The translations under genes were made by a program, and so were the position numbers. Of a stretch of 64,000 nt of DNA, positions 16,701-64,000 are shown piece after piece; the first letter of the stretch is position 1; every line of letters begins with the position of its first letter. Below the pieces are notes generated by a model, which saw only the letters and a list, made by a program, of their open reading frames with translations, had not been told where the DNA came from and did no database searches. This DNA comes from Malacoraja senta. Its lineage: Eukaryota. The stretch spans positions 17,362,001-17,426,000 of the forward strand of contig CM075989.1 in assembly GCA_038087875.1 (NCBI GenBank), written 5' to 3'.

Positions 16701-17445
16701 TGCGTCGAGAAAAGTCGCCGAAACTTTTCCCGTTAGAAGTGAAACAAGTGGCTCCAAGTTTATCGATTCTTTGCAACACTCTCTGCCCCCCGATTAGTTC
16801 CCCTCCCAGGAGTCAATCGCGTTCTATCTTTAACAAGAGACCCTAACATATTTAGACACAAGGAACTGCAGATGCTGACATTTTGGGCAACAAGACAAAG
16901 TGCTGGAGTAACTCCGCGGGCCAGGCAACATTCCCGGAGAACATGGATCGGTGAAGTTTCGGGTCTAGATCTGTATGGAGGAGGATCCCGATCAGAAATG
17001 TCGCCTATCCATGTACTCCACTGATGCTGTCTGCCCCGCTCGGTTAGTCCGACACTTCGTGTTATTTTTTGTTCTATGTATTGCTCCCTCTTCTTATGAA
17101 AACTCTGGCTCTATGGGCAAAGCACAGAGTGCTGGAGTAACTTAGCTGGTCGGGCAGCATCTGTGGAGGGAATGGACATTAAAGATTTCGGGTCGGGACC
17201 CTTCTAGAGTCATAGACTCTATTCTCTTCTACAGACTACACAGCTCGTACCACTCCTACTCTCTGCACTCTCCAGCTTTAGCCAAGGGTCCTACACGCTA
17301 GCGAGGGTAAGTGTGGTTTTACAGAGAGAACACTCTGCCTTGCCACCACCTCATCCTCAACTGCATAAACCCTGGCCAGGAGCTGACAGAATCGCTGTGG
17401 GCCGAACGGTCTGGGGTCAGAAGAGGTGAAGGAGTTATTTATTAC

Positions 17446-17708
17446 CAGTCCGTTGCAGGTGCTGAGCGCGGCGAAGGAGCGGCGGTGCCGAAGGACGTGG
17501 CCGCTGTAGAAGCAGTGATGCTCGGCTCGCAGGGGGGCCGTGCCTCTGCCCCGCTCCTCCACGGTGAATGCCGGCGCCAGGAAGCGCAGCCCCCGCCTCA
17601 AGGACAGCACCAGCTCGGTGCCCCAGGCCGGCAGCGGCAGCGCCACCTGGAGCTGTTCTCCCGGCGGACCCGCGCCCAGCCTCCGCGGTACGGTCAGCTC
17701 AGCGGCCG
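17446..17708 (-). CDS. ADAMTS17: ADAMTS17 coding exon 2 (prodomain)
   Basis: Acceptor ttctgtccAG, donor GTAATA; 263 nt; LPAWGTELVLSLRRGLRFLAPAFTVEE...CFYSGHVL...AALSTCNGL matches the ADAMTS Pep_M12B propeptide (human ADAMTS17 [27 protein letters not shown]...CFYSGRVL). Confidence 0.93.
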
Positions 17709-51604: not shown

Positions 51605-52890
51605 TGGGGGGGGGGGGAGAGTCAGTCAATAATGGGGTCTACTGTAGGGCGATCATAGTAGGGGATGGAGAAAGGGATTGGGTGGGAAGAGTCAGCCAAT
51701 AATGGGGTCTACGGGGAGGTAGCAGGGGGTAAGGGATTGGGGGTAAGGGATGGAGGGGTAAGGGATTGGGGGTAAGGGATTGGGGGTAAGGGATTACGGG
51801 TAAGGGATTGGGGGGGAAGAGTTGGCCAATAATGGGGTCTACGGTGGGGCGATCGCAGGGGGTAAGGGATTGGGAGTAAGGGATTGGGGGTAGGGATTGA
51901 GGGGAAAGTCAGTCAATAATGGGGTCCACGGTGGGGCGATCGCAGGGGGTAAGGGATTGGGAGTAAAGGATTGGGGGTAGGGATTGAGGGGAAAGTCAGT
52001 CAATAATGGGGTCCACGGTGGGGCGATCGCAGGGGGTAAGGGATTGGAGGTAAGGGATTGGGGGTAAGGGATTGGGGGTAAGGGATTGGGGGTGAGGGAT
52101 GGAGGGGTAAGGATTGGGGGTAAGGGATGGAGGGGTAAGGGATGGAGGGGTAAGGGATGGAGGGGTAAGGGATGGAGGGGTAAGGGATTGGGTGTAAGGG
52201 ATGGAGGGGTAAGGGATGGAGGGGTAAGGATTGGGGGTAATGGATGGAGGGGTAAGGGATGGAGGGGTAAGGATTGGGGGTAAGGGATTGGGGGTAAGGG
52301 ATTGGGGGTAAGGGATGGAGGGGTAAGGATTGGGGGTAAGGGATTGGGGGTAAGGGATGGAGGGGTAAGGATTGGGGGTAAGGGATTGGGGGTAAGGGAT
52401 GGAGGGGTAAGGATTGGGGGTAAGGGATTGGGGGTAAGGGATTGGGGGTAAGGGATTGGGGGTAAGGGATGGAGGGGTAAGGATTGGGGGTAAGGGATTG
52501 GGGGTAAGGGATTGGGGGTAAGGGATTGGGGGTAAGGGATTGGGGGTAAGGGATGGAGGGGTAAGGATTGGGGGTAAGGGATTGGGGGTAAGGATTGGGG
52601 GTAAGGGATTGGGGGTAAGGGATGGAGGGGTAAGGATTGGGGGTAAGGGATTGGGGGTAAGGATTGGGGGTAAGGATTGGGGGTAAGGGATTGGGGGTAA
52701 GGGATTGGGGGTAAGGGATTGGGGGTAAGGGATGGAGGGGTAAGGATTGGGGGTAAGGGATTGGGGGTAAGGGATTGGGGGTAAGGGATGGAGGGGTAAG
52801 GATTGGGGGTAAGGGATGGAGGGGTAAGGATTGGGGGTAAGGGAATTGAGGGGAAAGTCAGAATAATGGGGTCTACGGTGGGGCGATCAG
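51605..52890. repeat. G-rich satellite in PARP16 intron 1 (GGGGTAAGGGATTG / GGGGTAAGGGATGGA units with longer higher-order units)
   Basis: About 1.3 kb of directly visible tandem 13-15 nt units; aataatggggtc(c/t)acggtggggcgatc recurs as a longer unit. Confidence 0.95.
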
Positions 52891-52922
52891 TGAGTGGGAC
52901 ACGGCTCCGGGGGGGGACTCAC

Positions 52923-53135
52923 CAAGGCGTCGAAGTCCTTGTTGTCGCCGCTGACGTAGGCGGCGGGGAAGGGCCGGAGCACCGAGTCGCGCCGGTAACT
53001 CTGCAGCGCCGACATGAAGAGGCTGCACTTGAGGTCGGCGGCCCGCAGGTCCCGCCGGAGACACTCCTCCAGCGGCTGCTCGCCCAGGCCCAAGCCCAGG
53101 CCTAGACCCAGGCCCCGGCCGCCCTCGGCCTGCAT
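52923..53135 (-). CDS. PARP16: PARP16 (mono-ADP-ribosyltransferase, ARTD15) coding exon 1
   Basis: ATG at 53135; [44 protein letters not shown] matches the PARP16 N-terminal helical domain; donor GTGAGT; 213 nt, phase 0; CpG island. Confidence 0.95.
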
Positions 53136-58789: not shown

Positions 58790-61779
58790 GTGAGTGATAT
58801 ATATTTATAGCCTGCGATAGCTCTTGTATATAGAGGGAAGTTGGATTAAGTTGCTGTAGGTGACTGAGCCAGGCTGAGAAGAATTAGGGGCAAGACTTGG
58901 AGTTAAAAATTGCAGAACAAGGTTAAACTCGAAGTTCAGCCCGATCCAACCGTGGAGATAATTTTAGTTTAAGATAGTTTGCCACGGAGTAAACTGGAGG
59001 ATCGAGAGAGTTTTAATGGTTAGCAAAAGGTGACGCAGTTGATAGAGTGTTTAATATGAGTGTAAAATAACCTTCAGTTTACCACAGGCAAATGGGCAGA
59101 GGGCCAGACCTTGGAGTTAAATGAAACGACATGGCAAATACAACAGATGCTGGAAACTCAAACAAAAAACAGGTGCAGGTAGAAATCCTTGGCAGGTAAT
59201 GCAGCATCTTTTGAGGGAGAGCTAGGGACTAGAATGTAAAACTCAGTGATGTGATGCTGAGTCTTTATAAGTTACTACTCACTCTGCATTTAGAGTATTG
59301 TGAGCAGTTTTGCATCCCATATCTGAGGAGGTATGTGCTGGCGTTGGAAAGAGTCCAGAGATGGTTTACAAGAATGATCCTTCCTGGGTATGATGAGCGT
59401 TTGACAACTCTGGGCCTGTACTAGCTGGAGTTTGGAAGGATGAAACATTGAAACTTATCGAATAGTGAAAGGCCTGGATAGAGTGGATGTTAAGAGGATG
59501 TTTCCACTAGTGGGAGAGTCTAAGACCAGAGGGCACAGCCTCAGAATAAAAGGATGTACTTTTAGAAAGGAAATAAGGAGGAATTTCTTTAGTTGGAGGG
59601 TGGTGAATCTGTGGAATTCATTGCTACAGACAGCTGTGGAGGCCAAGTCATTGGGTATTCGTAAAGCGTAGATTTACAGGTTCTTAATTAATACTGGTGT
59701 CAAAGGTTATGGGGAGAAGGCGAGAGAACAGGGTCGAAAGGGAAAGATAGATCAGTTATGATTGAATGGCGGAATAGACTCAACGGGCAAAATTCTGCTC
59801 TTGTGATTTATGAAGTTAAACTTTCAGATTAAAAGAGCTTTGTGTGTACATGGCTTTGACAGTAATGTGGGAGGCCAAGAATTTAGCCTGTGGGTTATTG
59901 GTATCAGTAGTAGGGAAAGAAGGAGCCGTTCCATCTCAGTGTAATCCACTTAAACAGAAGCAAGACCGAGCAAGTGAATTGGCAAATCGTAAACCTGGGA
60001 GCAAGGGGAAATGGGCAGCAAGTAACTATCATGGAGGGCTTCAAAACGTCGTGCAGGCTGGGCAAATAAATGTATCAACATTAGTTTAGAGGACCAATTC
60101 ACAGAGTTCATTCATGCAACTGTCCAATGTGAGGATATCCACAAAGCTGGCACAAACATCAGTTAAGGCAGGACTCTAGATTTATCTGCACAATATGAAA
60201 TGTGATCTGATAAACCAAGAATAAATTGTGATGCTTTGTCCACAACACTAACAAGCTTCTCCACTCACAGTTTACATGGGGAATCTTCTTCACATTTCGC
60301 CACCCTCCCTCCACAAAGAACATTTCTCACCACTTGCCATTTTTTCCTCTAGAGATCATTGAAGGTATTAAAAATGTATGTAAATTTAAGCCATCTAAAA
60401 CAAATTGTGAGTCCAATGGAATAATAACAAGGCATTTTGTTCATTTGAATCTCAATACTATTTTCAAGAGTCTAGGAAAGAGTGTTTAATTGTCAGATGT
60501 ATTGAAATGGAATAATGAAATTGTTACTTGCAGCAGCACAACAGGTTTGTAAGCACAGTACTAAATAGATAACTTAATAAACAAACCAAAAAAATCAATA
60601 AATTAAAATCCCCAATATAGTACAAAACTAAACAAAAGCCCAAAGTCCATAGTGCAACCAAGACAGTTTATAGTTTGAAGTTTAGCTGGTGTTTGTAGTG
60701 TTCAATTGCCTGGAAAGAAGTTGTTCTTGAACCTCCGAGGTCACGGTTTTCAGTCTATACCTTCTTCCTGATGGCAGGAGTGAAATAAGAGCGTGGCCAG
60801 GGTGGTGTGGAATCTTGATGATGCTGGCTGCCTTTTTGAGTTAACGCCACCTATCGATCCATACGTTCTTTCTTCACCCTTACTGGAATGAAATAGTAAG
60901 TAAATAAGTCAGTAATTTTTATTTATATAGCACTTTTAAATCAAATCATGTTGAAGCCAAAATGCTTTACAGAGAAAAAAAATTAGATTCCATATAAAAT
61001 AAAAAAGAAGAAAGAAAAAAAAAGACACAATACACTATAGGATTCAACATCAACGTCCCCCCAACAACAGACGAAATGGAGTAGGATGCATAAAAGCCAC
61101 TCAGTTTAAAAATGAGCCAAGCAAAAACCTGTGTATGCAGGCTTGTTATGCTGCTGCATGTAAGAATTTCATTGTTCCATTGTTGGTACATATGACAATT
61201 AAACCCTCTTGACTCTCAAACCCAAGGAAACTATTCTTACTTTCTAAGGAAACATGGCAGTCTACTTAACACATTTTACTGTATTATGCCAGATTGCAAA
61301 TGTGCTTGTAAGCATAAGTGCCTTAATTCACCCTTTTCTTTCTCCTGATAAATTGAACATGGTACAGAATAAGCACTTCTGATTTACTGGTTAAATTAAT
61401 TCTGTTTAATTGAAATGCTTACTTATCAAAGCAGGAACTCTCAAGGGATACTTATATTTATTGTATTTTTTCTGCAGAGAAACTGTGCAATGGAGAACTG
61501 TGTTCACATATTCAGACAGCTAATTAAAATGCAGATGCTTCAAACAATTCACGGTCCAATATGGTGGATGAGAATTCTGCAATAGGCCTTGGAAAGGATT
61601 GCATCAACAGTTGGATTCTGTGATGAGGCTCCCAGCAATAGTGAGCAACTACAGACTCGGACATGGCCCAATCAAGGCCAAGTCATGATGAAACTACGTG
61701 ATCGTACATGTTTTAACTCCGGGCAGAAATTCCACTCAGTAACATTACCAAACTTTATTGCACTGCTTACCAATCTAAA

Positions 61780-62461
61780 ATGAGTGAGGTTACCATCAGT
61801 CCTGCGCACGATGTCAGGAGGTTTTCATCACAGACTGACAGCGGGGTTATCTCGGATTCATCCGATAAGTTTGACCCATGGTCATTGTGTCCAAAGGAAC
61901 TTGAGAAAGAAAAGATTGGGGGTGGATCTGAAGTTGAACAGGCTCATAACTCCAGTGCTAGCTATGGTGGAAATAAGCGTGATCTGCAAGAAACTGAGAG
62001 GGAGACCGCCGACGGGAAAAACCTTTGTACGGAACTGGAAATCACCAAATGTTCATCTATTCACAGGCTTTTAATAGTTTGTAATAATGTTAAGCGGTGC
62101 TCTGATATTACAGGTGCATCATGGCCACATGTGACTGTGGTGAATTATGCGTATGAGTCCTCCACGCTGGATTCAATTTCTGCACAAGTGGCTGAAGCTT
62201 TGAATGGAAAGCAAGTAAAATCTGTAGCTTTTGTTCTGTACAATCAGCAAGATGCGATACATATTTGCGGGGCTGGAGTGGTTCGGACACTCACGCCAAT
62301 TTCTATCCACAAGCAATTAGCTGTGCGGAGATTCTTTAACAATATTGTGACCAACCACGTTGATGTGGAAGATTCAGATACCAGGATGGATATTCTGGGC
62401 TGCACTGCCCTGATGACTGCAGACTTGGAGGAAGTCAAGAGGGAGCTGCAGAGTCTGACAG
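61780..62461 (+). CDS. Large coding exon of an unidentified protein with a DUF4347-like (NSMF/ECT2L-type) domain; gene probably continues right of the window
   Basis: Non-repeat open frame of 227 codons from aaaATG to donor ACAG|GTATAT; motifs RLLIVCNNV, VTVVNYAYESSTLDSISAQVAEALNGKQVKSVAFV and MDILGC...ELQSLTG parallel ECT2L ([31 protein letters not shown]...LSQLTG) and NSMF (IHIMGC). Confidence 0.72.
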
Positions 62462-64000
62462 GTATATTTATATTATACATTTAACAGTATACCAAATATC
62501 AGCTTTGATTTTATCAGAAAGTTATGAATTCAAGTGCTAGATGTTTGCAAAATCTACTCTGACACTTCCGCGATAGGGAGAGGTGTACTGTTTTAGGTGC
62601 TATATTTCATTTGTTATTAAACCAAGATTCCACCTGTCCTTCTGGTGAGCACACCAAATAAATGGTAACGTACAGATTAAGTTGCGAGATGCCTAGACTA
62701 CTAGTCCGATGATAATTGTTTGAATCCCTCCACCACGACTCAGATATTTCAATTTAGTTAATTAAATAAATCTGCAATGAAAAGATAGTAGCTGTAATGT
62801 TGGTTATGAAAACACTGTCACCTCTGCATTAGAGAAACCAAATGCAGATTGGGTTACTACTTTGCAGAGCGGGTCTGACTCCAAGGTTTGGGCTTTCATT
62901 TGTCTACCATTTTAATTATTCATCCCACTCCCTGGTTGACTTTGTTGTCTTTGGTCTGTGATACTACAGCAATAAAGCCCAACATAAGCTGGAGGAATAG
63001 CATCTCATCTGCCTTCCAGGAACATTGCAGTACTCAGAATTCAACCAGCTTTTTTCTGCTTGCATCAAAATCTGCCTCAAGTGTTTGGTATTCCGAGCAT
63101 TTTCTGTTGACTCCTACATCAGCTCTGTTTCATGTCTCACATGTTATCTGTTTTTTAAATCTGTTTTACTGTTTTCTCATTTTTCCATTTTTGATGAAGG
63201 ATCATTGAACTTAAACGATTCTCTCTCCGCAGACGCTGCCTGGCCTGCCAAGTATTTCCAGCACTTTCTGTTAATAATCTGATGTTCTACAGTCACTTTG
63301 TATTTATGGCACGGGCCTGATTAACCCACGGGCTGGAAAATGGCAGCTGGGAATTTGAACTTATTAAATAAATATGGATTACAAGGTTTTTATTGGGATT
63401 GATGATTGAAATCAGTGGATTGTTGAAAAAACCCCATATTAGATTGACAACACCCTTTAGGGTAGGCTACCGTTATTCTGTTTGTGACTCCTTTCGGTAA
63501 TACTATTGACTTTAATTGCTTTATGAAATAGCCAAGCAAGTCGTTCAATTCAATACTAATTAGGATGGGCAATGAATGCCAACAATCCCCAAAACTCAGA
63601 AAACCAAAATTGCTTAACTGGACATTATATATTTTCTGGGAAGTTGCCAGTATTTAGTTATTACAGTAAACAGAAGAATTAGAGAAATGCCTATTCAAGA
63701 GATCTTTTAATTATTCACCTGAGTTATTAAAATTTGGAACAATAATTAACTAACATTCTAAAGGGAAATAACTAACCAGTTTTTAACAAGCAATTAATAC
63801 TTGGCTCAACTGAAATTTCATCATGAGGAAATATGTTATTGTATCAGGTGTGTTCTTCTTAATCTTACTAATATTAAACCTCATTAAAAATGTGTTCATA
63901 GATACAGTGAAACATCACTGAAATAAATAGAAACAGGAAACTGCAGATGCTGGTTTGCAAAAAAAAGACAAAGTGCTGGAGTAACTGATTGCCTTAATTG

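Follow-up and report, generated by a model that had tools for sequence, protein, structure and literature searches.

The stretch of Malacoraja senta DNA analysed here (64,000 nucleotides; hereinafter the window) contains, at 61780..62461 on the forward strand, the first coding exon of a kinase gene of the DUF4347-NEK-RCC1-CaaX type, comprising 227 codons plus one base. The rest of this gene lies beyond the window, past the donor at 62462-62463, and a tblastn search recovered no other orthologue exons within the 64 kb. The kinase gene and PARP16 are arranged head to head at a distance of about 8.6 kb, the first coding exon of PARP16 being at 52923-53135 on the reverse strand (PDB match with E 2e-17; Pfam ARTD15_N); Pro-rich frames in the first intron of PARP16 are spurious products of a long, simple tandem repeat (51839-52918). 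Also on the reverse strand is a reprolysin propeptide exon at 17281-17700 (Pfam PF01562, E 1e-7), with a signal-peptide-like exon just upstream of it near 17.9 kb. From its appearance, the propeptide exon is a candidate exon of ADAMTS17/19.

The exon of the kinase gene reads without a stop from its ATG over all 227 codons (61780-62460), and this frame sits within a longer stop-free stretch of 255 codons, a length not attained in 300 shufflings of the 3.5 kb around it (longest 189). It closes with ACA G followed by GTATAT, the GT of the phase-1 donor occupying 62462..62463 on the forward strand. Both the 227-codon open frame and the phase-1 donor of the original prediction, which had been made from the letters alone, are thus confirmed, and every sequence motif it quoted is found in the translation. 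The translation matches the start of the Rhinoraja and Amblyraja models at about 90% identity, a value that rises to 94% over residues 90-227. A contig from run X1, which is RNA by guess only and comes from a related species at a depth of 2.2, aligns over 107 of its 153 letters to 62356-62462 and then departs from the window, the behavior expected of a spliced transcript; the unique sequence flanking the exon is not covered by this run, an absence that is not counted as evidence. Upstream of the ATG, the same frame is open for 21 more codons (61717-61779, forward strand), and the added residues look like the N-terminus of the Heptranchias model, which is longer; the tblastn match starts at 61726. 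There are AG acceptor-like sites near 61478 and 61727, and the ATG at 61780 is hence a putative 5′ end.

Residues 1-88 (61780..62043, forward strand) constitute a disordered tail, matching the predicted Ser/Glu-rich low-complexity N-terminal part: residues 1-90 include 13 Ser and 11 Glu, their blocks have a low pLDDT of 53-61 in the AlphaFold model, and no secondary structure is seen before residue 88. The tail contains a DSGxxS motif behind a basic RRxS-type site (61837..61854, forward strand), which, from its resemblance, we take to be a candidate beta-TrCP phosphodegron. It recurs in 10 of 84 distinct N-tails, all of them chondrichthyan, and these therefore represent one lineage rather than independent occurrences; a family-wide degron was accordingly rejected. 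The oyster members show a different DSG motif in the same N-terminal tail.

The tail is followed by the first three quarters of a DUF4347-type α/β domain with a cysteine-protease-like fold (residues 89-227, 62044..62460, forward strand; pLDDT 85-98). The exon spans positions 8-145 of the 191-position family profile, and positions 146-188 are encoded after the donor in the orthologues. About a quarter of the domain, including one strand and two short helices in the AlphaFold model, hence lies in the next exon, contrary to the proposal that a single exon holds the whole domain. At the sequence level, the exon by itself retrieves no Pfam family at E<=10 and nothing below E 0.28 in a sequence search of the PDB. 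DUF4347 (PF14252) is weakly recovered in 2 of 8 shark and ray orthologues (15.8-17.5 bits against a gathering score of 24.6) and scores above that threshold in the Lineus and Limulus members (29-32 bits). Further, a precomputed DUF4347 annotation is attached to 21 of the best 120 rows of the kinase search, and the DUF4347-kinase combination can already be seen in database Pfam annotation. The domain profile matches, in whole or in part, 138 of 139 long kinase proteins, a redundant set of which 26 were seeds of that profile.

We built AlphaFold models of the domain of the catshark orthologue and of the window's exon itself. Both have Tce1 (9qpe_G) as their best fold match, the former with Z 10.2 and rmsd 3.8 over 150 aligned residues (next row Z 7.1) and the latter with Z 9.0 and rmsd 3.2 over 125 (next row Z 6.3); among 48,161 PDB chains, it is the sole one at Z>=8 for both models. 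The accessible parts of the relevant papers describe Tce1, i.e., PA0256, as a DUF4347 protein (PMC8262886) and, with its His186 and Cys240, as a putative cysteine protease (PMC13323088). The prediction of a DUF4347-like α/β module is therefore upheld by the members above the Pfam cut-off and by this fold match. Foldseek found no match at E<=0.001 to the PDB with either model; against viral models it gave 7 matches at E<=0.001, all with an rmsd above 14 and hence uninformative. Solved clan-CD protease chains (caspase, CHAT and the MARTX protease) score Z 5.3-6.0, the same level as unrelated Rossmann folds. The end of the DUF4347 domain, which is encoded beyond the intron, contributes a Tyr (residue 261 in the member P0003) that all 87 aligned members share; outside the kinase, no other column is invariant. 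When the DUF4347 domain and the kinase were modeled as a complex without an alignment, the score was 0.00, which is evidence neither way.

The bacterial DUF4347 domains (PF14252, including Pseudomonas Tce1/PA0256) share this fold together with matching His and Cys positions, and one from Estrella is 28% identical to the family domain over 144 residues. They differ in context: the bacterial versions occur with adhesin repeats or as secretion cargo, whereas the family domain is fused to a kinase and, in the window, has Tyr in place of the His. In a quick domain tree, the kinase-linked domains fall on one side and the bacterial-type domains on the other with a support of 92. One sequence (P0051) was considered as a bacterial sister of the family and rejected, as it runs into the start of a kinase and groups with Geodia. 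The nearest named bacterial DUF4347 matches are from Chlamydiales, namely Estrella and a metagenome-assembled genome (P0030, P0054, P0190). The top ESM Atlas cluster is mostly from Nucleocytoviricota.

The position of the protease His is occupied by Tyr154 (62239..62241, forward strand), the counterpart in the alignment of the His of the bacterial DUF4347 HG motif. The Cys position corresponds to Cys208 of a D-x-L-G-C motif (62401..62403, forward strand); here G207-C208, following the last core strand, align with the bacterial GC motif. These two positions, mapped by alignment and by spacing rather than by residue-level superposition, are 54 residues apart, the same spacing as between His186 and Cys240 of Tce1. 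This agrees with the earlier observation that the Cys of the GC motif is kept and that no HG motif is visible. All 12 chondrichthyan rows have Cys208.

A search with residues 90-227 against proteins of 399-2000 amino acids yielded 13 matches out of 185 candidates with identities of 69-94%, all from sharks, rays and skates, with Rhinoraja and Amblyraja being the closest. A kinase and RCC1 repeats accompany the domain in 12 of these 13 (7 of 8 on rescan), and the orthologue models run on directly from the last residue of the window's exon into the remaining part of the domain and then the kinase. In the skate and shark orthologues, the DUF4347 domain leads into a NIMA kinase with RCC1 repeats behind it, and the tail then bears a NEK6/7-binding motif of the NEK9 type, a segment likely to form a coiled coil, and finally a CaaX box; it is from these gene models that we know the kinase and tail, whose exons lie beyond the window. 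The best PDB match of the orthologue kinase is NEK1 (E 2e-105), followed by NEK7 and NEK2. Its catalytic motifs are intact in 6 of 6 orthologues checked and, unlike the dyad positions, its core is nearly invariant across members. What had been presented as an unidentified gene is identified by these orthologue models as a NEK8/9-type kinase with RCC1 repeats, and it is almost certain that the exon begins such a gene.

The C-terminal tail of the family shows two conserved motifs. A P-x-W-hydrophobic-x-x-E-L/F motif is present in 115 of 135 family proteins, as against a shuffled mean of 0.025 and none of 21 NEK8 proteins. Its Glu is found in 90 of 90 distinct motifs even though the search pattern did not require it, and its spacing is that of P809/W811/L812/E815/L816 of NEK9. 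The accessible text on NEK9 describes the P809-L816 helix as binding NEK6/7 and, with the coiled coil, activating NEK7, with F821/I822 being required for NEK7 binding (PMC4632185). Equivalents of F821/I822 are not kept in most family members, sharks included, and two nematode rows have hydrophobic residues at these positions. The Pigoraptor member lacks the NEK6/7 motif, and a search with the tail motif against the PDB gave no match. A conserved segment after the motif is, as judged by eye, likely to form a coiled coil. The conservation of the motif suggests that the tail is likely to dock NEK6/7.

The second motif is a CaaX end, found in 110 of 124 long family proteins as compared to 0 of 27 NEK8 proteins. 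The final residue is M, Q or S in 108, which is the farnesyltransferase class. A CaaX box is likewise paired with an RCC1 domain in RPGR, itself a ciliary PDE6-delta cargo. Further, 84 of 90 distinct tails have Ser at −3 and I/V/M/L at −1. The same tail pattern characterizes the PDE6-delta cargo INPP5E and GRK1, in which Ser at −3 and Ile/Met at −1 before the farnesylated Cys are described, in the accessible part of the source, as conferring high PDE6-delta affinity and ciliary sorting (PMC5512577). RPGR and INPP5E are not NEK kinases, and PDE6-delta binding by the family is a prediction from the tail pattern; on this basis, we lean slightly towards a tail that would be prenylated and would direct these kinases to the cilium. 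The two closest models, both from skates, have no terminal CaaX, as one ends early and the other has a copy of the motif inside it and continues further.

A phmmer search over 1.8 billion representatives gave 44 matches, and the long ones among those looked up proved to be either bacterial DUF4347 proteins or kinases from invertebrates with the same architecture. Among the best 120 of 399 long matches in the kinase search, 17 chondrichthyan rows lead with identities of 85-100%, followed by amphioxus (76%), hemichordates, echinoderms, spiralians, arthropods, a nematode, cnidarians, sponges, a tunicate and the filasterean Pigoraptor; the domain and kinase are also present together in the choanoflagellate Savillea. 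The proposal of a family kept in cartilaginous fish and absent from mammals is hence borne out in so far as no mammalian orthologue is among the matches listed, but not as a family of cartilaginous fish, for its members are spread across the holozoans and some are invertebrate genes that already have names. In the ribbon worm Lineus, one contig has several DUF4347-kinase models that are nearly identical (P0024, P0066-P0071, P0097) and possibly represent a tandem expansion; those scanned were without RCC1.

We computed two quick, midpoint-rooted trees without an outgroup, one of the kinase (81 rows) and one of the kinase plus RCC1 (31 rows, most long-branch insects excluded); the kinase trees contain no NEK9 row. 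In both, a single branch separates the family from NEK8 with an SH-aLRT of 100. Six species in the kinase plus RCC1 tree hold both a family member and a NEK8, and the presence of a choanoflagellate NEK8 places the split between the two before the animals. NEK8 likewise combines a kinase with RCC1, with the kinase being 52-56% identical to that of the family, but it forms a separate clade on a long stem and lacks a DUF4347 match, the CaaX end and the NEK6/7 motif; the accessible text describes it as ciliary (PMC11974183). NEK9 (Nercc1) shares with the family a NIMA kinase, RCC1 and an unstructured tail bearing a P-x-W-L-x-x-E-L helix with a downstream coiled coil (the NEK9 side from the accessible part of PMC4632185). 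The family is set apart from NEK9, by description, in having an N-terminal DUF4347 domain and a C-terminal CaaX box beyond the NEK9 plan, and the shark members do not retain F821/I822. To our knowledge, neither an N-terminal DUF4347 domain nor a C-terminal CaaX box occurs in NEK9. NEK9 probably also lies in a different genome-duplication paralogon from PARP16, which would speak against the family being an ancestral NEK9.

Two invertebrate genes are of special relevance here, the comparison resting on Aphelenchoides and insect rows rather than on the C. elegans and Drosophila proteins themselves. The Aphelenchoides protein with the database name NEKL-1 has the domain (E 4e-15), the NEK6/7 motif and the CaaX box, is 41% identical over 837 residues, and nests inside the family in the kinase tree. 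Insect nimA-like (Niki-like) kinases also fall on the family side of the tree, but five holometabolan models among them have no DUF4347 domain (P0285, P0226, P0263, P0298, P0286). The holometabolan models checked are also without the NEK6/7 motif, the CaaX box is absent in two tails, and their branches are long, a pattern that reflects either incomplete models or a second case of this gene decaying, here step by step. The accessible text of reviews groups NEKL-1 and Niki with NEK9 or NEK8/9 (PMC5716973; PMC13035276), and NEKL-1 is described in another source, likewise accessible in part, as uncharacterized (PMC4263411). The Nematostella apical-organ gene ao18, labeled NEK8/9-like, is a possible member of the family.

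Other explanations of the exon and its domain were weighed against these data. Other vertebrate carriers of DUF4347 are NSMF and ECT2L, the latter combining it with an F-box and a RhoGEF (DH-PH) module, and the exon might in principle be a diverged exon of either or a stand-alone DUF4347 gene. NSMF clusters do appear in the ESM Atlas at ranks 8 and 16 with scores of 0.81 and 0.80 (PF14252 being noted in 10% of one), which is at the level of a lead; however, orthologue models about 90% identical to the exon join this sequence to a kinase with RCC1, no F-box or RhoGEF was found in Pfam scans of 8 chondrichthyan orthologues, and the same kinase fusion extends as far out as a filasterean and a choanoflagellate. 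This possibility is thus exceedingly small, and the architecture, in which the domain precedes a kinase, bears out the claim that the gene is neither NSMF nor ECT2L. A more substantial contender is that the domain works as a cysteine protease of the clan-CD-like type in sharks and certain invertebrates, for example by clipping itself off the kinase that it directly precedes, and has lost its activity only in particular lineages such as skates. It would accord with the match to Tce1, but the protease activity of Tce1 is itself only putative, and the window's protein has a Tyr in place of the His. Across 100 non-redundant kinase-linked members, the His is kept in 62, the Cys in 53 and both in 33, most sharks being among the latter, so that protease activity might persist in sharks. 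Yet 33 is the value predicted if the two residues vary independently (relatedness uncorrected), the His is followed by Gly in only 36 of the 100, and the best-kept residues of the domain are the structural F185 and D204. We therefore consider an active enzyme improbable. Given the Tyr in the window and the joint presence of both residues in only a third of the members, the domain is probably a pseudoprotease across the family, and very probably so in the window's species.

The alternatives concerning the history of the family are less easily set aside. Bony vertebrates have apparently lost the gene, going by the annotated proteins among the matches listed: no bony-vertebrate or cyclostome member is found among the best 120 of 399 long kinase matches. 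The gene might nevertheless survive, unannotated or hidden, in a coelacanth, lungfish, bichir, gar or lamprey. Only the best 120 rows were listed, at most 8000 candidates were scored, the representative library places members behind 50% clusters, and the Callorhinchus gene model is without the window's exon, indicating that annotation misses parts. Against this, an annotated orthologue would be expected near the top of the listing, bony fish appear among the best 120 of 1947 short matches solely with a true NEK8 at 51-52% identity as compared to 76% for amphioxus, and for each of the 29 unnamed rows checked, chondrichthyan rows are more distant than non-vertebrate or further unnamed ones. Such survival is thus unlikely but deserves attention, and the adjacency of PARP16 provides a useful synteny anchor for testing the loss. 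One row (P0086) had been considered as a hidden vertebrate and was rejected, its nearest named row being the nematode NEKL-1. A different reading would keep the same mechanism and make the family the ancestral NEK9: vertebrate NEK9 would have arisen by duplication and lost DUF4347 and CaaX, sharks would have kept both copies, and the literature would be right to label the invertebrate genes as NEK9, of which they would be true co-orthologues. The NEK6/7-binding motif followed by a likely coiled coil, common to both, favors this, as do the hydrophobic residues at 821/822 in nematode members. However, no bony-vertebrate NEK9 is among the best 120 kinase matches down to 392 bits, even though sponge and filasterean members are present, so that NEK9 would need to have diverged much faster; moreover, one paper, in its accessible part, applies the name NEK9 to Nematostella and sea-urchin genes, which may or may not be members of the family. 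We regard this origin as doubtful, if somewhat less so than survival in bony vertebrates, and consider it fairly probable that the family has been distinct from the NEK9 orthogroup since before the vertebrates.

The explanation that we prefer, with reasonable though far from complete confidence, is that the gene encodes a kinase carrying a dead protease fold, a NEK6/7-docking motif and a farnesyl anchor, and that it represents a third RCC1-bearing NEK lineage, which includes NEKL-1 and the Niki-like kinases and was kept in cartilaginous fish. Under this proposal, the CaaX tail would be farnesylated and PDE6-delta would carry the kinase to a membrane, probably a ciliary one, where it would self-associate via the coiled coil. 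The tail would then dock and activate NEK6/7, as NEK9 does, with the DUF4347 domain acting as a non-catalytic binding or regulatory module ahead of the kinase.

NEK kinase domains are N-terminal with rare exceptions according to the accessible text of a 2007 phylogeny (PMC2031824). We found no description of a DUF4347- or CaaX-bearing NEK in the literature covered, subscription kinome papers being largely outside the search. The surprise is limited in that all the parts are known and the invertebrate genes already have names. The eleven human NEKs (a count from the accessible part of PMC11974183) are joined by a further vertebrate one, and DUF4347, here a probable pseudoprotease, gains a third setting among animals at a time when a bacterial member has a structure. 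The finding also questions the treatment of NEKL-1 and Niki as NEK9 orthologues and offers testable predictions for NEKL-1, namely farnesylation, ciliary sorting and NEKL-3 binding. More speculatively, and with the balance tilted against it for now, animals might ancestrally have possessed a third RCC1-type NEK, a farnesylated NEK6/7 activator of the ciliary membrane gated by a domesticated bacterial-type protease fold, which would survive in sharks, skates, the worm NEKL-1 and a degenerate fly Niki and would have been lost in bony vertebrates. If this is true, the His/Cys pair of sharks might still cut, and the worm and fly genes called NEK9 would not model human NEK9.
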